A stretch of DNA of 64,000 nucleotides from an uncultured Muribaculaceae bacterium (GCA_964513435.1 CAZEMQ010000001.1:5883-69882); one strand, 5' to 3'; shown: positions 965 to 54,695, counted from the stretch's first letter. Program-made: numbers and translations. Notes: generated by a model from the letters alone, not told the origin.

Positions 965-1672
965 TTATACAATATAATTATTCTGAGATTGTTCTCTTTC
1001 TTTTAAAAGTTTGTCTATTAGTTTTTGTTGTGCTTCAATCTTTTTGCTTAATTCAATAATATTTTCTGTATTTTGTTCTATCTTATTTTCATGTTCTTTT
1101 AGTTTCCAAATAATTGCTTGACCTAATTCAGCTAGTTTGAATAATTTAGTATCTGTTTTACAACCCGTTTCTATATCCCTATTTTTATTATCAACTGAAA
1201 CTAAATAATTTTCTTTTTTTAATTCCTGATTACACTTACGAATGCAAGATTCTGACATATTTATCTTATTAGCAAGATCATAATTAGAATACGAAATTTT
1301 CCCAAAGCCTTCTGTATCTTTGTACATATATTGTTGTGCAGCCACAAGATATGCTTTAGTAGTTGGAGTTAACGTTTGATTTTTTATGAATTCTGGACTA
1401 AAAGGTTCAAAAGTTTTATATTTACTAAATGTATAATAATTTCTACGTCCTTTTTTCTCTACTTTAATATAATCTTCTTTTACTAAGTTATCTATACATT
1501 TTTTAATTGTTGGAATACTAATTTTAGATTCTTCAGCAATTAAAGCTAATGATGGAAAACATCCATCTTTTCCGTTATGAGATTTAATCACTACATAAAC
1601 CAATTGATCAATTGGTTTTAAATTGTGATTTGACATTTCATTTGGTAATTGTGTGTGTTGTTTTGTTTCCAT
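965..1672 (-). CDS. tandem winged-HTH DNA-binding protein with C-terminal coiled coil (putative replication initiator or early regulator)
   Basis: Two HTH-like repeats and a K/E-rich heptad C-terminus. Divergent from the iteron/repeat region. Confidence 0.5.
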   Translation of the reverse strand: METKQHTQLPNEMSNHNLKPIDQLVYVVIKSHNGKDGCFPSLALIAEESKISIPTIKKCIDNLVKEDYIKVEKKGRRNYYTFSKYKTFEPFSPEFIKNQTLTPTTKAYLVAAQQYMYKDTEGFGKISYSNYDLANKINMSESCIRKCNQELKKENYLVSVDNKNRDIETGCKTDTKLFKLAELGQAIIWKLKEHENKIEQNTENIIELSKKIEAQQKLIDKLLKEREQSQNNYIV

Positions 1673-2572: not shown

Positions 2573-3025
2573 ATGTTTACAGGTTTTGTTCCAGTACAAA
2601 ATGCAGAAGAAGTCGCAAAGAAATCGTTTGATTTATCGAACGGGACTTCACCGTTTCAACACGATGTTGAATTTACCGTTACGGGATGGGATATGCATTA
2701 TCGAACAGAGGACAATAGAGTAGTTCAAGGCTCGAGAGCATTACCGATTTTGAAAACTACTATCGGTGATTGTTTTATTTCAATGATTATTAAAGCGAAG
2801 GTTTCAGCAGATAGAAAGCTCGTTGAACCAAGCGGAACCTTTAATAAGAAAGTCAGAGAAATAATCATAGACAATCGAGGGAAATCTACTTACGACATTC
2901 TTAACGCGATTTGCGATGCGGCTAAAGACAAGAAAATTCGCGTTTCACGTGAATTTTATCCAGCATTGGCAAAAGACGGTAGGGAATATCCGGGCTACCT
3001 CGTTAATCTCAATTTCATAGACTAA
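2573..3025 (+). CDS. hypothetical early protein (GC-richer codon usage)
   Basis: First ORF downstream of the control region. Composition distinct from the bulk genome. Confidence 0.45.
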   Translation: MFTGFVPVQNAEEVAKKSFDLSNGTSPFQHDVEFTVTGWDMHYRTEDNRVVQGSRALPILKTTIGDCFISMIIKAKVSADRKLVEPSGTFNKKVREIIIDNRGKSTYDILNAICDAAKDKKIRVSREFYPALAKDGREYPGYLVNLNFID

Positions 3026-3091
3026 AGTCTATCGACCTAAGCAAGTCGATAAACTGCTTACTTTTAATCTAATAATCTAAATAATAAAACT

Positions 3092-3412
3092 ATGTTACTT
3101 CATACAAACACTCCGATAATAAATAGATTTTTTACCGCAGGTTACATGATTAATCATAAAATGGTAAAGAAGTTCTACAATATATTCAAAACTACTGAAT
3201 ATTTTACATTAGATGAAGATTTAATTAATATCTTAAAAGACAGCGAACTTGAAGAAGCGAAGAAAATAATTCGCTTAAATGATAGGAGGAAAGGGATAGG
3301 AATTGAATCTAATAACAGTGCTTTATATAGTTCTTCTGATGGGTTAAGAATAAACTACAATGATAAACATAGCAGACAATTACTTAATCCTGGAATTTAC
3401 TATGGAATTTAA
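3092..3412 (+). CDS. hypothetical protein
   Basis: ORF from the track. Confidence 0.35.
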   Translation: MLLHTNTPIINRFFTAGYMINHKMVKKFYNIFKTTEYFTLDEDLINILKDSELEEAKKIIRLNDRRKGIGIESNNSALYSSSDGLRINYNDKHSRQLLNPGIYYGI

Positions 3413-3418
3413 TAAAAT

Positions 3419-3456
3419 AAGGGTGTTCCTCGAAAGAGGTTCACCCCTTATCTTTT
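3419..3456 (+). terminator. rho-independent terminator
   Basis: GGGTGTTCCTC-GAAA-GAGGTTCACCC hairpin followed by a T-tract. Confidence 0.55.
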
Positions 3457-3713
3457 GAATACAAACGATACTATGTTGCACCAACTACACTATGTTGCAC
3501 CAATAACCTAGCCAAATATATTACCTAAATAACCTAGCCAAGTGTATAGGCAGCTATAATTACTTAGTGTATAAGGAATGTATACATTATACTATTATAG
3601 TATGCAACAATTTAATGATGAAATCATATATCTCACATCTAAAAAGAGAATATATCCTATTTTAATTATTAATCTTTAAAACCTTATGGTGTATAGGAAA
3701 CCGTATTTAAGAA

Positions 3714-4181
3714 ATGGCTAGTTTAGCAGTTGAAGAAAAAAGACAAATCGCAATGGGTGCAAAAGAAGTTAATTCTTTTGGTGGTGCAGTACGTTCTTTA
3801 GAGAACTCTGGTCTTGAGAAAGGTGATACATTCACTTTTCCAAAAACGTATGATAAAATTTATGAACGTGTGTTTGGAACCAATAAGGCTGCTTACATTT
3901 TAGTAGAAGTCGGTCCAGATAATGTTAAACCATTTTATCCGAGTACTTTTACAAAGTCCAGAACTATCTATAATGAGGATAAAACAAGTACTGGTCAAAG
4001 GGTGCATACAACTGGTACAGCAGCTGAGATTTTCCAGAAGTGTGCAACAATGGATGAAGGAATGCAGAAATTAGCTGGTAAAAAAGTGATTGTTTCTGAT
4101 GTTAAGACTATTCGTACTTTACGTTATGGAACAACAGATTTAATGAATGCTCAAATTCCTGTAATTGATTTAGTTGATTAA
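3714..4181 (+). CDS. hypothetical early protein (GC-richer, terminator-flanked)
   Basis: ORF, followed immediately by a strong terminator. Confidence 0.45.
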   Translation: MASLAVEEKRQIAMGAKEVNSFGGAVRSLENSGLEKGDTFTFPKTYDKIYERVFGTNKAAYILVEVGPDNVKPFYPSTFTKSRTIYNEDKTSTGQRVHTTGTAAEIFQKCATMDEGMQKLAGKKVIVSDVKTIRTLRYGTTDLMNAQIPVIDLVD

Positions 4182-9663: not shown

Positions 9664-10455
9664 AAATTATCGGGGCTGACGGGTTTTGACAGCGATAATG
9701 ATATAAGTAAGACGTGTAGAGCGCGATCTCTTTAAACGAAGAAAAACAATAAATGCAAACTACAACAAAGTAAGAATGGCTGCCTAAGCAGCTGGCTCAG
9801 TTAATGATATGTTGAGTCGGGTTACAGGAGAGACCTAGAAACAGAAGAGGTGTGCAGAAGAAGGATTATAGAGCCACTGCACTTAACTTGAAAGCCAAAG
9901 GTTAGTAAAGCTGAATCTCCTACTATTGTCTTTAAACAGAAGGGATGTGTGCCTGCGTGGTTGACTCACCACAAACACTCGTTTTCTGCTTTAGCGTTAA
10001 AAAGTAGGTGACGGAAGGTGCTTCAACGGAGCCTTCTAGTTTCTCCAAACTATAAATGGAGTGGTAGATGTTGACTGTTCTAGTCAGTCCTAGTTTGTTA
10101 ATATCATATAACTAAATAAGCTGAACCTCAACAGTTAAAAATAGAGACACACGTTATCTTATTTATTAAATATTGTTGGACGAGGGTTTAATTACGGACC
10201 AGTTAGATGGTGACATCTAATTAAAAATATCGGATGAATTCAGGGAACGCTAAAAATAAAGCTCAGAATCAGCTTTATTCATGCCAATCCTGAGCTAAGC
10301 ACAAGGTACACCTTGTGAAAGTGCAACGACTACCGGAGAAGTTTAGCCTTCTTAATCACCGGCTTGAGCGTCCGACATCTCATTTTGAGATGATGATATA
10401 GTCTAATCTTCTTCGAAAGAAGTATAAGAACATTTTGCGATTCCCTCCAGCTCCA
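9664..10455 (+). ncRNA. ssrA: tmRNA (ssrA), interrupted in the T-loop by a group I intron
   Basis: 5' GGGGCUGACGGGUUUUGACAGCG is a tRNA-like domain start. The resume codon GCA sits ~90 nt in; tag ORF GCA AAC TAC AAC AAA GTA AGA ATG GCT GCC TAA (9755-9787, ANYNKVRMAA). The 3' end GAGGG-TT/CGATT-CCCTC-CAGCTCC-A forms a T-arm and acceptor stem complementary to the 5' end. Confidence 0.7.
10189..10437 (+). other. group I intron (ORF-less, ~249 nt) within the tmRNA T-loop
   Basis: Conserved P AATTCAGGGAAC, Q AATCCTGAGC, R GCAACGACTACC and S GATATAGTCTAA elements in canonical order. The intron ends in G and the upstream exon ends in U. Confidence 0.65.
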
Positions 10456-23349: not shown

Positions 23350-24419
23350 TTACTGAGTCGTTAATAGAAGCTATCGACAGAGGACGTGAGGGGAAAGAAC
23401 AAGGTATTAGTATCGGACTACCAAAATTGGAACAATATATAGATGGAGTATGTAAAGGAGTATACACACTTACTATGGCTGAAAGTGGAGTAGGTAAATC
23501 CAGTTTTATGCTTTATTCTTATGTGTATAGACCTCTTATTGATCATTTGGATGATAATAAACTGCGAATAAGTATATTCTCATTAGAAATGAATGCAAAT
23601 ATGCTTATGGCTAAATTACTTTCTACTTATATATTTGAACATTATAATGTTAGATTAAGTATAAAACAATTATTATCTGTACAAAGAGGTTTTAGATTAA
23701 ATGACAATTGTTATAAAATTGTACAAGAGTGTATTCCTTGGATGAAAAAAGTTGAATCTGTACTTACCATCTATGATAAAAGTGCTACAGCAAACTTTAT
23801 ATATAAAAGTTTGTTAAATGAACTTAATAATAGAGGTAAGTTTATAGAAACTGAACATCGAAAAATATATATTCCGAATGATCCTAATTTAACCCATATT
23901 GTTATTGTTGATCATATTGGTAGAATTATGCCTAGTGCAGGTTCTACATTAAAACAAGAAATGGATTTAGCTTCTAAGTATTTATATTCTTTAAAAAATA
24001 GATGTAATATTACTCCTATTGTCATTCAACAGATGAATAGAAGTATTCAAAGCATGGATCGTAGGAAAGAATCAATGATAACACCTTTAACCTCGGATGC
24101 AAAGGATACTAATGCTACAATTGAAGATGCAGAATCAATATTAGCTATATTTTCTCCAGATAAAGCTAAACTTAGTACATATAAAGGATATGACATAAAA
24201 GAGTTAGGCGATTCGTTTAGAAGTATTCATGTATTGAAATCTAGATATGGTGAAGCTAATGTTGAAGATGCTGTTTACTACGATGGTAAATGTAACAAAT
24301 GGATTGAATTACCACGAGCTAATGAAATTAATGATTACGAAAAGTATAAAAATCCTAGATGGTATTTAGAAAAAGATAAAGAAGATAATGAAAAACAAAA
24401 TTTTGATTTTACAATATGA
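23346..24419 (+). CDS. DnaB-family replicative helicase (RecA-like domain)
   Basis: Walker A ESGVGKSSF, Walker B IVIVDHIG, arginine finger region. Confidence 0.55.
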   Translation: MITESLIEAIDRGREGKEQGISIGLPKLEQYIDGVCKGVYTLTMAESGVGKSSFMLYSYVYRPLIDHLDDNKLRISIFSLEMNANMLMAKLLSTYIFEHYNVRLSIKQLLSVQRGFRLNDNCYKIVQECIPWMKKVESVLTIYDKSATANFIYKSLLNELNNRGKFIETEHRKIYIPNDPNLTHIVIVDHIGRIMPSAGSTLKQEMDLASKYLYSLKNRCNITPIVIQQMNRSIQSMDRRKESMITPLTSDAKDTNATIEDAESILAIFSPDKAKLSTYKGYDIKELGDSFRSIHVLKSRYGEANVEDAVYYDGKCNKWIELPRANEINDYEKYKNPRWYLEKDKEDNEKQNFDFTI

Positions 24420-26670
24420 GTATAGTATTACCAAGTAAACCTATTCCTAGTGTTACACAAGATCCTAAGAATTTGATAATATATGGTATGCCAAAGATTA
24501 ATACTAGTCGAGCAGTTTAGGAATAAACTGTGTTAAATGGGCAAAAACGGTGAACCTCTTATATTTCTTTTTTAACATAATTTACCTACTATAATTCACT
24601 ATAAATATTTAAATTTGTATAATTAAATTTTTAATTATGCAAATAAATAGAAATAAGTATTCAATTGAATTTTATAACGAATGTGCGAAATATATTAATG
24701 AAGGACATTCGTTAAAGGAATGTGCAAATAAGTATAATATAAATTATACTACACTTAGATAGAATTTAACAAAATTAGGTCTAAGAAAACCCAATAGAGT
24801 AGGGAAGATTAATAAAACGGTTAGTTTTAATGAAAATTATTTTGATAATATAGATAATCATAATAAAGCATATTATCTAGGATTATTAATGTCTGACGGA
24901 TATATTTGCAAAACACCATATTCATTTCAAGTTGGAATTTCTTTACAAAAAGAAGATTCTTACATTTTAGAGAAATTAAAGGAAGAAATGAAATCTACTG
25001 CTAAAATATCTGAATATAAAAATTCTAATAAAATTGTATTTACAGGTAGTGAACATTTATTCAATGTGCTAAAATCTTATGGTTTTAGTGAAAATAAATC
25101 TCATAAAGATTATACAATTCCTAACATACCTAGACAATTTATTAATTCTTTTGTTAGAGGATATTTTGACGGAGATGGTTGTATTACTATTAAGTCTACT
25201 GGTTATGTTGTCATATCCATATGTTGTAATTCTAAAATATTTTTAGATTCTTTATGTAATGTATTAACTAATGAGTTTGATATTCCTGACATTAGAGTGA
25301 AACAAGAGCAAGGAAAAAGAAAAATCCATTATATGTTCTATATATTACAAAAAAGAGTAATCAACTATTGTTTAAAGACTTTATATATCAAAGTGATGAA
25401 ATAAAACTAATTAGAAAATATGAGAAATTTAAGAAAATACCGTGCTAACTTAAATAATTGCGAAAGGTATTTAAGTAGTGTAACGCGTAGTAGTTGAATA
25501 AATATAATACTGCCAAGAGTGTCCACATCCCAACTGAAATAAGTGGATGAAAATGTACGCTGAGCTGGTCTGAATTGACAGACGTATCTTTTTAAAAGTA
25601 TGAGAGAAATCTCCAGAATTTAGAGATAAAAAGCTCTAAAGATAACATAACTGTGGAAAGACAACCATTTTATCAACATTAGAAGATAATTTATTATTAG
25701 ATTTTGAAGATGGATCTGATTATGTAAATGCACTTAAAGTTAAAATACATAATCTTAATGAATTTGGAGAATTATGTAAAGCATTAAATGAATCTGAACA
25801 TAAATATAGATTCATTACAATTGATACAGTAACTGCATTGGAAGATTTTGTAAAACCATTGGCATTAAATATGTACAAAAAAACTCCTGCTGGAGCGGGA
25901 TATGTTGGCGATATTATAAATGCACCAATGGGAGCAGGCTATGGATTTATAAGACAGGCTATTGAATACGTAATAGACAAATTAGCATCATATACAACTA
26001 ATATTATATTAGTAGGACACGTAAAAGACAAAACTATTACTTCATTAGAAGGTAAGGAGCTAGGCTCTGTTAAAGATTTCGACTTAACTGGTAGAATGTT
26101 AAAATAATTTTGCCGTTCTTAAAAGTGATTTTAAGAATAATGACGGGGTAATATCGGAGAAGGCTAAAAATTGGATAGATTTACATAAAAATGTAGATTT
26201 CACAATTCATGCTAATTCCGAGATAAGTACAGAAACTAAAGAGTCTGTACCATCGTAACGCATAGGTATTGAATCTGAAAAATCAGAATATAATATACCC
26301 AAGAGTATCCCGCATCTTTCATATAAGATGAAAATATATGCTGAGCTGGTCTGAATTGACAGAAGGTAAGTTAATTACGGGTTAATTAACCATGAGAGAA
26401 ATCTCCAGAATTTAGAGATAAAAAACTCTAAAGATAACATAACTGAAAACAGGTCGAATATTAGCTAGTAAGAGCGATGCTATCGGGTTTGTGTATCGCG
26501 ATTCAGAGAGTAATTTATGTATTAATTTTGAAACTAATGGTATTGCTTCAGCGGGTGCGAGACCTGCACATTTAGCAAATAAAAAAATAGTTGTAGCAGA
26601 AAGACAGGAAGATGGAAGTTTTATTTCACATTGGGAAAGAATTTATCCAAGTCTTAAAAGTGATAAATAA
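24416..26670 (+). CDS. Sak4-like (AAA_24) recombination ATPase, three exons (24416..24498, 25654..~26092, 26446..26670)
   Basis: Spliced Walker A ...LIIYGMPKI|GKTTIL is reconstituted across intron 1. Exon 3 gives ...ARPAHLANKKIVV...; SSB gene downstream. Confidence 0.55.
24499..25653 (+). mobile_element. group I intron 1 in the Sak4-like gene, carrying a LAGLIDADG HEG
   Basis: Exon 1 ends in U and the intron ends in G. P-like AATAATTGCGAAAGG; 3' core shared with intron 2. Confidence 0.55.
24637..25404 (+). CDS. LAGLIDADG homing endonuclease with N-terminal HTH, TAG-recoded (TAG at 24760)
   Basis: LGLLMSDGY and RGYFDGDGCI are the two LAGLIDADG motifs. The frame is continuous from ATG 24637 through the TAG. 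Confidence 0.6.
26093..26445 (+). other. group I intron 2 in the Sak4-like gene (ORF-less)
   Basis: A ~170-bp 3' core near-identical to 25480..25653 (...ATGCTGAGCTGGTCTGAATTGACAGA...GAGAGAAATCTCCAGAATTTAGAGATAAAAA.CTCTAAAGATAACATAACTG). The 5' boundary is uncertain. Confidence 0.5.
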
Positions 26671-50778: not shown

Positions 50779-51133
50779 AATGAACTTAAATGAATTTAGA
50801 ACATTAAGAAAACCTTTTTATATCCATCCAGAAACTTTATTAATTAAGTTTCCCAGACAAAAACATCTGGATAGTTCTTGCGCGGAATGGTTCAGTGACG
50901 AAAATATTCCTTTTTTACATACAATTAGAGGATATTATAATGAAGAGGATAATTATGTAATGTTATATACTAATGATTTTGAAACACCAGATATTAGTAT
51001 AAAATTCTTAACATACATTTTTGAATATTTTCCTAATATAGATTGGATTGGTATAGGGTGTATTAAAGGAAAGGAAGGTGAAATATGGAGTCCAAAAATG
51101 AAAATACAAAGAACAAATGTTAATAAGAAATAA
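50771..51133 (+). CDS. hypothetical protein
   Basis: ORF from the track. Confidence 0.3.
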   Translation: MNKMNLNEFRTLRKPFYIHPETLLIKFPRQKHLDSSCAEWFSDENIPFLHTIRGYYNEEDNYVMLYTNDFETPDISIKFLTYIFEYFPNIDWIGIGCIKGKEGEIWSPKMKIQRTNVNKK

Positions 51134-53673
51134 GATTGTTATTGTATATGATATAGAATTATTTCCCAATGTTTTTTATTGCACATTAAAAGAAACAGAA
51201 TCAAATAAAAATGTTTCATTAGAAATTTCAAATCGAAAAAACGACATACACAAAATAATTAATTTTTTTCATAGAGTTAAAACAAAAGTAAACTCTAGAA
51301 AAGAAATTAAAGATAAATATATATTTTGTGGATATAATAATATACACTACGATAATGTTATAATTAATTATATAATTGCTAATCGAGAACGATTAATAAA
51401 TTGTAATTATGCACAAATATGTGCTGAATTATTTGAATTAAGTAATCAAATTGTTAATTCTGGAGACGGTATTCAATCTTGGTATAAATGGAAACATCTT
51501 ATTTATTTTGACACTTTAGATTTACTCACAATGTTGTTTTCTCAAAAACTTAGAGTAGGTTTAAAATCTATGCAAGTAACAATGCAATATTCAAATGTTC
51601 AAGAATATGAAGGTGATTTCAGTAAACCATTACCAGATTCTGAAATTCCAAAGATGGCTGCATACAATATCAATGACGTTGAGAGTACAACAGAATTATT
51701 AAACAGATGTAAATCGGATATTGATTTAAGACTTAATATTGAAGAAGAATACAATATTGATGTTTTAAATAAAGATGGGGTGAATATTGGAATGCAAATT
51801 ATTGCACAAAAATATTTGGAAAAAACTAAATTAAAATGGAAAGATATTAAAGATTTACGAGATCCGTGTGATGTTATAGATCTTAATCAAATAATTTTAC
51901 CATTTATCAAATTTGATAATCCGATTTTACAAGATGTATTAATAGAACTTAAAAAACAAAAAGTATCTCCAGGTAGAAAAGGTTACGAACGACATTTTCT
52001 ACTAGATAATGTTGAATATACCATAGGAGTGGGTGGTATTCATAGTGTAAATACACCTGATATATTCAAATCTGATGAAAATTGGGTAATTTCAGATATT
52101 GATGTTGCGTTAATACATTGGCGCAAGTAAAACAAACTAAATTGCGGGAACATTCTTAGAGCTTTTGTTACCAACTTATAATAGTAATATATAAGGGCAA
52201 AACTAATCACTTTGATAAGGTAAAAAGACAAAAGATTGGATAATCCGCAGCCAAGTTACCTATTTTAGGTAAAAGGTTCACAGACTATTCCTTTATGGAA
52301 GTAGGGTATAAGTGACGTTTATATCCGAAAAAGTTTGAATTTATTTTGGGAGCTAGCATTACATACTTTTAGATAAAGACGAACTAGCCTTAAAAGGAAT
52401 GTATCAAAATAAATTATGATATAGTCGATAATGAGTCGAAAGATTCATACACACGAGTAAACGTCTTAGTGTGTGAGAAAAGCGATGTATCCCAGTCTTA
52501 TAATAGAACATAAATTTTATCCACCTCAATTAGGAGAAGCGTTTTTACATATTTATTCTAAAATTAGAGAAGAAAGAGTAGAAGCTAAACATAAAGGATT
52601 TAAAACAAAAGATGCTACATTGAAGTTAGCCTTAAACGGGTTGAATTTTCGTTTCAGCTCCTTCATCCAGGGATGGATGATGTAAACAAACCAAAATCGG
52701 TGAAAGTCTGGAATGATAATACCGAGGTAATTGTAGAAACTAAAGAGTCTACAACACCGTACAGCATAGAGACTGAACCTGATTAGTCAGAATAAAATGT
52801 CTCCACGAGTGGTTTGATCTAGAACAGAATAAAATATATGCGGATCTATAACGAATTAATAAGTTATAGAAGTATGGGATAAAAAACCTGTACGATAACA
52901 ACAATGTGAGTGGCATGCTTCAAAATGAGTATAGCTTTTGTTATTCTCCCATTACAGCTATGAAAGTTAGAATAAATGGACAATTAATGTTATTAATGTT
53001 AGCAGAACGGTTAATTAACATTGGTTGTAAGGTCTTAAACGCAAATACGGATGGAATCTTTGTATTAAGATCTCGTTCTGAAGAAAAAATGTTTCAACAG
53101 GTTTGTAGGGAATGGGAAAAATTAACCAAACTTACACTTGAAGAAGATAAATTTGAAGCCTTTTATCAATTTGCTATTAATGATTATCTTGCGATTAAAG
53201 AAGGATATAGTAAAACTAAAAATCCAAAACTATTAAAGAAAAAAGGATTATTTATAGATACTGTATCTTTAGGGAAAGGAATGAATGCAATAATTATTCC
53301 AGAGGCAATTAATAAATATCTTGCAGATAATATTCCGTTAAAAGAAACCATATATAATTGTAAAGATATTAGTAAATTTTTAACTTTTCAGAAAGTGGCA
53401 AAAACCTTTTCTGTGGAATATAATGGTAAATTAATTACTCATATAAATAGATATTATGTATCAACTGATGGGTATAGTCTTTATAAATGTAAAGTCAATA
53501 CAAAAGGAGAAAGAAGTGGATATATAAATATGTTAAAAGGATATGGAGTAACTATAACAAACAATCTTGATGAAATAAAAGAATTTCCGAATAACGTTAA
53601 TTATAATTATTATATCACAGAAGCTAATAAAATAATCACAAAACTTAAACAAAAACAGTTAAGTTTGTTTTAA
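51117..53673 (+). CDS. family-B DNA polymerase, three exons (51117..52110, 52483..~52640, ~52888..53673)
   Basis: Exo motifs YDIELFPN, YNNIHYDNV and YNINDVES. Spliced motif A DIDVA|SMYPSLII; motif B region KLALNG|LYD; DTDG motif C variant in exon 3. Confidence 0.6.
52111..52482 (+). other. group I intron (ORF-less, 372 nt) in the DNA polymerase
   Basis: P AAATTGCGGGAAC, Q AATCCGCAGCC, R GGTTCACAGACTAT and S ATGATATAGTCG are all near-consensus. Exon 1 ends in U, the intron ends in G, and splicing restores motif A. Confidence 0.7.
52641..52890 (+). other. second intervening sequence in the DNA polymerase (~250 nt, type unresolved)
   Basis: Exon 2 terminates at TAA 52683 after motif B begins. 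The exon 3 frame opens at ~52870 and completes motif B. Core intron elements are not clear. Confidence 0.35.
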
Positions 53674-53909: not shown

Positions 53910-54695
53910 ATGGAAAAGAAATTTGAGATGACCGACAAATTTATTGTCAATTCTTTTGGCATCAAACTGTTTCAGATTAAATGTATTCGCAAAATCAAGT
54001 ATGCTGAAGCAGGTGAGTTGGGCGGATATATTGAGCATGAAGATAATTTGAGCCATGATGGAAATGCCTGGATTTGTAATGACGCACAGGTTTTTGACAA
54101 TGCAAAGGTTTACAACAATGCACTAATTCACGGTCGTGCAATGATTTATGGCAATGCAAGGGTCAGTGGCAATGTAGGGGTTTATGACAATGCACAGGTT
54201 TTTGGACGTGCAGATGTTTATGGCAATGTAACAATCTGTAATACTGCACAAGTCTTTGATCAAGCAGAGGTTTATAGTTACACAAATGTTCTTGATTCTG
54301 CGAAAATATATGGTCATGCTAGTGTGGGAGGTATTACAATCATCTATGAATTCGCAAATATCTGCGGTAATGCGATTGTAAAAGGTAATGCACGCATATG
54401 TGGTAATGCAAATATCTGTGGTAATGCGATTATAAACGGCAACGCACACATATGTGGTAATGCAAATATCGAAAATAATGACCAACATTGTGGCTTTGAT
54501 TATTTTGGCAGTCAGCTAAGGCACACCCATGCTTATATCACCAAAGACAAAGGAGTAGAGGTGAAATGTGGATGTTTTTGTGGTAGTATAGAAGAATTTG
54601 AACGAAGGGTTGAAGAAACGCATGGGGACTCAAAGTATGGGCGTGAATACAAGGCAATGATAAATCTTATTAAGATAAAATTTAACTTAAAATAA
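53910..54695 (+). CDS. hexapeptide-repeat (left-handed beta-helix-like) protein with C-terminal Cys-rich tail
   Basis: ~25 tandem xGNAxV hexads; GC-richer than the surrounding sequence. Confidence 0.5.
   Translation: MEKKFEMTDKFIVNSFGIKLFQIKCIRKIKYAEAGELGGYIEHEDNLSHDGNAWICNDAQVFDNAKVYNNALIHGRAMIYGNARVSGNVGVYDNAQVFGRADVYGNVTICNTAQVFDQAEVYSYTNVLDSAKIYGHASVGGITIIYEFANICGNAIVKGNARICGNANICGNAIINGNAHICGNANIENNDQHCGFDYFGSQLRHTHAYITKDKGVEVKCGCFCGSIEEFERRVEETHGDSKYGREYKAMINLIKIKFNLK

Follow-up and report, generated by a model that had tools for sequence, protein, structure and literature searches.

The window analyzed here, a stretch of 64,000 nucleotides (nt) assigned to an uncultured Muribaculaceae bacterium (GCA_964513435.1, CAZEMQ010000001.1:5883-69882), comes from a crAss-like gut phage and carries at 51117..53673 (+) a gene for a family-B replicative DNA polymerase that is interrupted twice. 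We consider it very likely that both insertions are group I self-splicing introns. Intron 1 (52111..52482) is a conventional, IA2-like phage group I intron, and intron 2 (52642..52906) is, judging from comparison with its relatives, an intact member of a different group I subfamily, neither degenerate nor of another intron class. From their anatomy, junctions, covariation and homology to curated group I introns, we infer that both catalyze their own splicing. Group I introns in polymerase (PolB) genes of crAss-like phages are already known (Yutin et al. 2021, PMC7886860), and the window adds an unremarkable though well-resolved example; modestly new is that the intron 2 subfamily is described at the RNA level and found to go unseen by the Rfam model.

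The open reading frame (ORF) listing of the window gave three open pieces on the plus strand, separated by two stretches rich in stop codons. An earlier reading made without database searches (the sequence-only reading) had described the gene in the same way, as a family-B polymerase in three pieces. Exon 1 (51117..52110), as defined by the ORF list, by colinearity with 18 uninterrupted homologues and by tblastn matches to crAss-like phage DNA polymerases, encodes amino acids 1-331 and the first base of codon S332, includes the exonuclease motif DIE and ends in ...DIDVA. Exon 2 (52483..52641) covers 53 codons, from motif A (...SMYPSLII) to KLALNG and the first base of codon L385, and its last base is U52641. 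Exon 3 (52907..53673) supplies the last two bases of L385 and continues with SGMLQNE..., motif C (NANTDG), the C-terminal domain and the stop codon. We therefore propose the annotation join(51117..52110, 52483..52641, 52907..53673), a predicted mRNA that would encode a 639-amino-acid polymerase with motifs A and B restored.

The spliced product aligned to the 18 uninterrupted homologues without gaps and with 57-69% identity. The search for relatives of the polymerase returned 80 further uninterrupted genes in IMG/VR; it recovered uninterrupted genes only, with no relative carrying an intron at the same sites. Uninterrupted metagenomic homologues numbered in the thousands, with identity up to 69% and many of them on contigs of 160-180 kb, and tblastn matched the assembled polymerase to DNA polymerases of Suoliviridae (cr10_1, cr4_1 and others) at 42-56% identity. 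No Pfam family, polymerase families included, matched the spliced protein; PHROG 1252, “DNA polymerase”, matched it end to end (E = 2e-144). When a profile of 19 family members was compared with PDB sequences, almost only family-B polymerases were matched, the best being E. coli Pol II (E = 0.0018) in an alignment spanning motifs B and C. An AlphaFold model of an uninterrupted homologue that is 69% identical (P0001; predicted local distance difference test score, 77) gave family-B polymerases as 50 of its 50 top Foldseek matches in PDB, at E about 4e-9. As criteria for family B we used the motifs Exo I (DxE), A (DxxSLYPS), B (KxxxNxxxG) and C (DTD) in order, plus the fold. Within the family, DIE, D.DVASLYPS (DVASMYPS in the window), KLALNGLSG and NTDG occur in this order and are invariant, and the spliced protein carries the full series. 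The identification as a family-B DNA polymerase thus holds, on the basis of motifs, PDB profile matches and the predicted fold of the homologue. No second replicative polymerase was noted in the window, and the gene appears to encode the sole replicase.

Intron 1 is 372 nt long, lacks an ORF and is IA2-like according to RF00028, the pairings read from the sequence and the junction seen in homologues. When 51900..53100 (1.2 kb) was searched alone, RF00028 matched 52101..52448 over the full model (positions 1-253) with 46.1 bits and E = 2.7e-10. The conserved elements P (52139-52151), Q (52242-52252), R (52275-52287) and S (52416-52427) were all located. The coordinates that the sequence-only reading gave for this group I intron, and the four elements it named, are correct. 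The end of exon 1 (52105-52110, UUGCGU) pairs with 52121-52126 (GCGCAA) to form a P1 of 6 base pairs (bp) with U52110·G52121 at the splice site, and a P10 of 6 bp is possible between the 3' exon (52483-52488, CGAUGU) and 52115-52120. The core consists of P3 (52133-52137/52333-52337), P4 (52143-52148/52244-52249), P6 (52250-52252/52275-52277) and P7 (52283-52287/52422-52426); between P7 and P3', the stretch 52288-52326 contains two hairpins, P7.1 and P7.2. The terminal guanosine (ωG) is at 52482. Splicing at U52110|...G52482| restores the host ORF as DIDVA-S-MYPSLII, and all 18 uninterrupted homologues align here without gaps as D.DV[AT]S[LM]YPS, confirming the earlier suggestion that removal of this insertion reconstitutes motif A. 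The predicted ligated junction reads ...GAUGUUGCGU|CGAUGUAU....

In these respects intron 1 resembles the phage IA2 introns modeled by RF00028, such as those of T4 td, nrdB and nrdD and of orf142 in Staphylococcus phage Twort (PMC3984707). It shares with them the sequences of P, Q, R and S, the P7.1/P7.2 hairpins between P7 and P3', the U·G pair at the 5' splice site, the terminal G and the location in a catalytic motif of a DNA-metabolism gene. It differs in lacking an ORF and in its long P5/L5 and P8 extensions, scoring 46 bits against a cutoff of 50.

The boundaries of intron 2 are fixed by the homologues. Across this site the 18 uninterrupted genes read LKL[AS][LI]NGLSGNLQ (...KLALNGLSGNLQNE...), with N383, G384, L385, S386 and G387 invariant. 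Therefore, AAC GGG U (..52641) must join UG AGU GGC AUG (52907..) to give NGLSGMLQNE, which places the intron at 52642..52906 (265 nt), with exon 2 ending in U52641 and the intron in G52906. The predicted ligated junction is ...AACGGGU|UGAGUGGC.... Several statements of the sequence-only reading about this insertion have to be revised accordingly. It had placed the insertion at 52641..52890 and let the polymerase resume at “LYD...”; LYDNNNV is intron sequence, and reading on through LYD would add six residues, YDNNNV, that occur in no homologue. Its objection that the exon 2 side does not end in U arose because the junction had been misplaced by 1 nt on the 5' side and by 16 nt on the 3' side.

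The same reading had seen no clear core elements in the second insertion, yet every helix of the group I core is present. In P1, the exon bases GGGU (52638-52641) pair with GCUC (52657-52660), so that U52641 faces G52657, and the hairpin runs on into the intron as UGAA/UUCA (52642-52645), the whole of 52638-52645 pairing with 52653-52660. The first bases of the 3' exon, UGAG (52907-52910), can displace UGAA and pair with UUCA at 52653-52656, forming a textbook P10. The remaining helices are P2 (52663-52669/52674-52680), P3 (52687-52693/52810-52816), P4 (52697-52702/52720-52725), P5 (52706-52708/52715-52717), P6 (52726-52728/52756-52758), P6a (52731-52737/52748-52754), P7 (52764-52768/52837-52841), P7.1 (52769-52773/52799-52803; 5 bp, four of them covarying), P7.1a (52779-52782/52787-52790), P8 (52818-52820/52826-52828; 3 bp), P9 (52846-52852/52863-52869) and P9.1 (52872-52878/52887-52893), followed by the tail at 52894-52906 (GAUAACAACAAUG) with ωG at 52906. 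The P1 and P2 hairpins appeared in both the minimum free energy and the centroid folds. The minimum free energy fold alone gives a non-pseudoknotted junction and is unable to show P7. A hand-folded assignment of AGACUGA...UUAGUCAG to the R and S strands (P7) of this intron was rejected, since no more than 10 nt separate the two strands, which the comparative data assign to P7.1/P7.1a.

To evaluate these helices comparatively, we proposed them from six sequences and then tested them on two structure-blind alignments, one made with nhmmer (133 distinct sequences) and one with MAFFT (61 distinct full-length ORF-less sequences). In the MAFFT alignment, 99.2% of the cells in 42 pairs were paired, and 34 of the 42 pairs showed compensatory changes on both sides; the weakly aligned P8 was kept outside this formal count. 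The covariation score was 0.689, compared with 0.18 in shuffled alignments (0 of 500 reached the observed value) and 0.05-0.15 when partners were slid by 1-3 columns, a control in which pairing fell to 31-45%. The 133-sequence alignment agreed on the helices. P7 (GCRUA/UAYGC), 5 bp long, is paired in 100% of sequences with two covarying positions, and because it crosses P3, the topology is that of the group I pseudoknot. From 5' to 3' the elements run P3, J3/4 (AAA), P4, P5, P4', P6/P6a, J6/7, P7, P7.1/P7.1a, CACGAG, P3', P8, J8/7 (AAAAUR), P7', P9, P9.1 and GAUAACA-N5-6-G, which is the group I core arrangement P3-P4-P5-P6-P7-P3'-P8-P7' with its pseudoknot. Extra helices between the 5' strand of P7 and the 3' strand of P3, the mark of subgroup IA, are found in both introns, and the extra arm of the intron 2 family occupies the position of the IA helices P7.1/P7.2. 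Given this P7.1/P7.1a arm, IA1 may be the closest named subgroup.

A family hidden Markov model (HMM) built from seed sequences and run on the collected loci gave 159 hits, among the best of which was intron 2 itself (142 bits, E = 7e-42). The window copy keeps all the covarying helices and the invariant positions, namely G123-C200 of P7, CCACGAGUG and GAUAACA; the idea that it might be a degenerate intron or belong to a different class is thereby set aside. It and its relatives have the core, the covarying helices and the 3' tail in common, with 65-80% identity over about 230 nt. HNH, LAGLIDADG or GIY-YIG ORFs, which many relatives have in L5 or upstream of P3, are absent from the window copy.

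The family is widespread. Its 17-base core motif, AATAWAAT-N4-CCAMGAGTG, was found on at least 120 IMG/VR contigs and in at least 118 bacterial or archaeal genome stretches, 81 of the 118 being confirmed by the family HMM, and the family consensus matched 116 GenBank phage records, including Staphylococcus, Bacillus, Clostridium, crAss-like and Lak phages. Sensitive blastn detected non-coding stretches 65-84% identical to intron 2 inside split genes of unrelated phages: a RecD-like helicase gene in Bacillus phage PJN02 and tape-measure genes in B. thuringiensis phage BMBtp13 and Streptococcus phage Javan355. In all three, the relative stands directly after an HNH or homing-endonuclease ORF and directly before the point where the gene resumes. 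Of the 34 loci L009-L042, most appear to be chance matches and were given no weight, but a few (L015, L022, L027 and L034) contain family HMM hits. Endonuclease-bearing and ORF-less members alike occur, in terL, tape-measure, helicase and ribonucleotide reductase genes of Staphylococcus, Bacillus, Clostridium, Streptococcus, crAss-like and Lak phages and in Nostoc and Firmicutes genomes. terL, a gene for a DnaB-like helicase and, in Nostoc, one for a ribonucleotide reductase (cut at NPCG|E) are among the host genes sampled; these are typical homing sites. In the records inspected, these stretches were unannotated or labelled “none”. In bacterial genomes, where the family is likewise common, these sites are the ribonucleotide-reductase-like gene of Nostoc (L250 and about 25 other loci) and, elsewhere, a DnaB-like helicase gene (with a LAGLIDADG ORF) and prophage terminase large subunit genes (L322, L270 and L304). 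The BMBtp13 tape-measure gene (L007, 3..221 and ~1459..1670) has both intron types in one gene, like the window polymerase: an RF00028 intron (97 bits) precedes an HNH-bearing member of the intron 2 family.

One member connects the family to the curated introns. The sequence L045 (1013..1293, IMGVR_UViG_3300045988_111291), which scores 77 bits with the family HMM, is the only one of 29 members searched that RF00028 detected (1013..1256, 54.4 bits, above the gathering score). It has canonical R (GGUUCAGAGACUA) and S (GAAGAUAUAGUCC) elements with P7 as GACUA/UAGUC, together with the family-specific modules P7.1 (GGUAUUGAA...AGAAUAUAAUAUACC), CACGAGUG, P9.1 and the GAUAACA tail. This hybrid indicates that the subfamily is homologous to curated group I introns and not just alike in shape. 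Between the RF00028 consensus and the family, the elements correspond one to one, with J3/4 AAA in common. In the P4 region, the family has AAA-UCGGUG-AA where RF00028 has AAUU-GCGGG-AAA, and AAU-ACCGA-GG where RF00028 has UAA-UCCGCA-GC; in J6/7 and P7, GUAAC-GCRUA corresponds to UCAAA-GACUA, and in J8/7 and P7', AAAAUR-UAYGC corresponds to AAGAUA-UAGUC. The two sets differ chiefly by an exchange of the two central P7 pairs; the family also has a single P7.1 arm. RF00028 probably misses the other members because R and S are modeled as conserved sequence rather than as a pair.

It is conceivable, if somewhat short of probable, that intron 2 represents a distinct group I subclass, uncurated in Rfam, that ranks among the commonest phage introns and is frequent in Nostoc and Firmicutes genomes; its marks would be P7 as GCRUA/UAYGC, a single P7.1-P7.1a arm, CCAMGAGUG before P3', and P9.1 followed by the GAUAACA tail. 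No published structure or splicing assay specific to this subfamily was found in the literature. If such a subclass exists, Rfam-based censuses of group I introns in phages and bacteria would be substantial undercounts. More broadly, neither protein-domain searches nor the Rfam group I model pick up ORF-less introns of crAss-like phages. With a covariance model of the family, split genes would be recovered by the hundreds from assemblies of phages and bacteria, and the intron load of these genomes could be estimated better. How group I introns are understood to work is unchanged by these findings.

The splicing of both introns would follow the standard two-step, guanosine-initiated transesterification. 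The primary transcript would fold into two ribozymes, and the internal guide sequence of each would pair with the end of the upstream exon to form P1, with the U·G wobble at the splice site. An exogenous guanosine bound in P7 would attack the 5' splice site; the terminal G of the intron would then take its place, and the freed 3'-OH of the exon would attack the 3' splice site, with P10 keeping the register. Removal of both introns would yield one mRNA and the 639-amino-acid polymerase. Because neither intron has a homing-endonuclease gene, both are probably immobile remnants or dependent on endonucleases supplied in trans.

Several observations weigh against this interpretation. The RF00028 score of intron 1 lies below the gathering score of 50, and its match was not reported in either of the faster whole-window searches; we attribute the low score to the long insertions in L5 and P8. 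The covariance-model check suggested by the sequence-only reading was supportive for intron 1, where the match is significant though under the threshold, and negative for intron 2, which no Rfam family, RF00028 included, matched at E ≤ 10. Across the family, 28 of 29 members, intron 2 among them, had no RF00028 match at limits from E ≤ 10 to 0.001. In addition, P1 of intron 2 has only 4 exon bp, two of which are G·U, and its P8 is weak, with columns that align poorly across the family.

Three other explanations were considered. Intron 2 might be a decayed remnant unable to self-splice, in which case the polymerase would be a pseudogene or splicing would depend wholly on protein cofactors. The absence of an endonuclease or maturase ORF, the 3-bp P8 and the silence of RF00028 are what such a remnant might show. 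We regard this as highly unlikely: a family HMM score among the best of 159 hits, intact covarying helices, retained invariant positions and exons free of frame damage all argue for a working intron, and loss of splicing would be lethal because the insertion cuts the apparent sole replicative polymerase inside an invariant motif. That intron 2 is instead a fragment of a group II intron, a new ribozyme class or a signal for translational bypass (a “hop”) might be proposed from the lack of any Rfam match and from the failure of the sequence-only reading to notice P, Q, R or S in it, and it is the least credible of the three. At 265 nt the insertion is far too small for a group II intron and has no match to domains V/VI; its helices map one to one on group I P1-P10, with the P3/P7 pseudoknot, an A-rich J3/4, the U·G pair and the terminal G; and the L045 hybrid is recognized by RF00028. 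Against a bypass speak the change of frame from exon 2 to exon 3 and the length of the spacer, five times that of the T4 gene 60 gap.

In the remaining explanation, which concerns both insertions, two or three polypeptides are translated separately and assemble into the polymerase, and the intervening stretches are never removed from the RNA. Some phages have split polymerases, and a GTG codon is present near the start of piece 2 (52473) and of piece 3 (52906). We give this very little weight, since the breaks split codon S332 in motif A and codon L385 in motif B, and no homologue has the extra residues that read-through or GTG starts would add. Each spacer is a conserved structured RNA of group I architecture, and relatives of the second are found in many unrelated genes, where their removal always restores the host ORF.

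Yutin et al. reported that group I introns are dense in the Delta and Zeta groups of crAss-like phages, with PolB, MCP, primase and ATP_43b as hosts, and depicted one PolB in four fragments (PMC7886860). The window agrees with that report in phage group, in host genes (PolB and a RecA-like/AAA ATPase gene at 24416..26670) and in having several introns per gene. Its polymerase introns differ in being ORF-less, whereas the introns of that study, whose RNA structures were not described there, were detected through endonuclease domains (PMC7886860). Because of this mode of detection, ORF-less introns would have looked like unexplained gaps.

Other PolB genes are interrupted as well. Two are broken at or beside the motif A site, near amino acid ~331 (L159, ~2823..3746 on the minus strand of the locus; L120, 4790..5766), and the L159 insert looks by eye like a group I intron with P, Q, R and S, bears a GIY-YIG ORF and lies 3-4 nt upstream of the window site. 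In the reference crAss genomes cr53_1 (L002, 1537..2369) and cr118_1 (L003, 1477..1862), PolB is annotated as two coding sequences split at amino acids 405/406, a third insertion site; one insert contains an HNH endonuclease and the other a 48-amino-acid ORF. None of these four inserts matched Rfam at E ≤ 0.001, and those of cr53_1 and cr118_1 did not match the intron 2 family HMM either.

Elsewhere in the window, the intron 2 family accounts for at least two further gene breaks. Its core motif occurs twice more, both times in the RecA-like/AAA ATPase gene (+). One intron (24499..25653, +) cuts Walker A (GMPKI|GKTT) and has a LAGLIDADG-type ORF (24889..25404) in L5, and the other (26093..26445, +) is ORF-less; both would splice U...G, with junctions placed by the cr7_1 and cr55_1 homologues. 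The window also contains an intron-form transfer-messenger RNA (tmRNA) gene at ~9672..10455 (+), matched by RF00023 with 46.1 bits (gathering score, 47; E = 4e-15), with the tag frame ANYNKVRMAA* and the G3·U70 acceptor pair retained. Its T-loop is interrupted by a group I intron at 10180..10425 (+; RF00028, 95.4 bits). ARAGORN, run on the window, did not call this gene; such an “intron form” of tmRNA is already known (PMC11915505). Finally, the ORF directly downstream of the polymerase (53910..54695, +) consists mostly of [GN]NA.[IV].G.A.[IV] repeats, for example GNARICGNANICGNAIINGNAHICGNANI, and from this pattern its product looks like a repeat protein of the beta-helix type.

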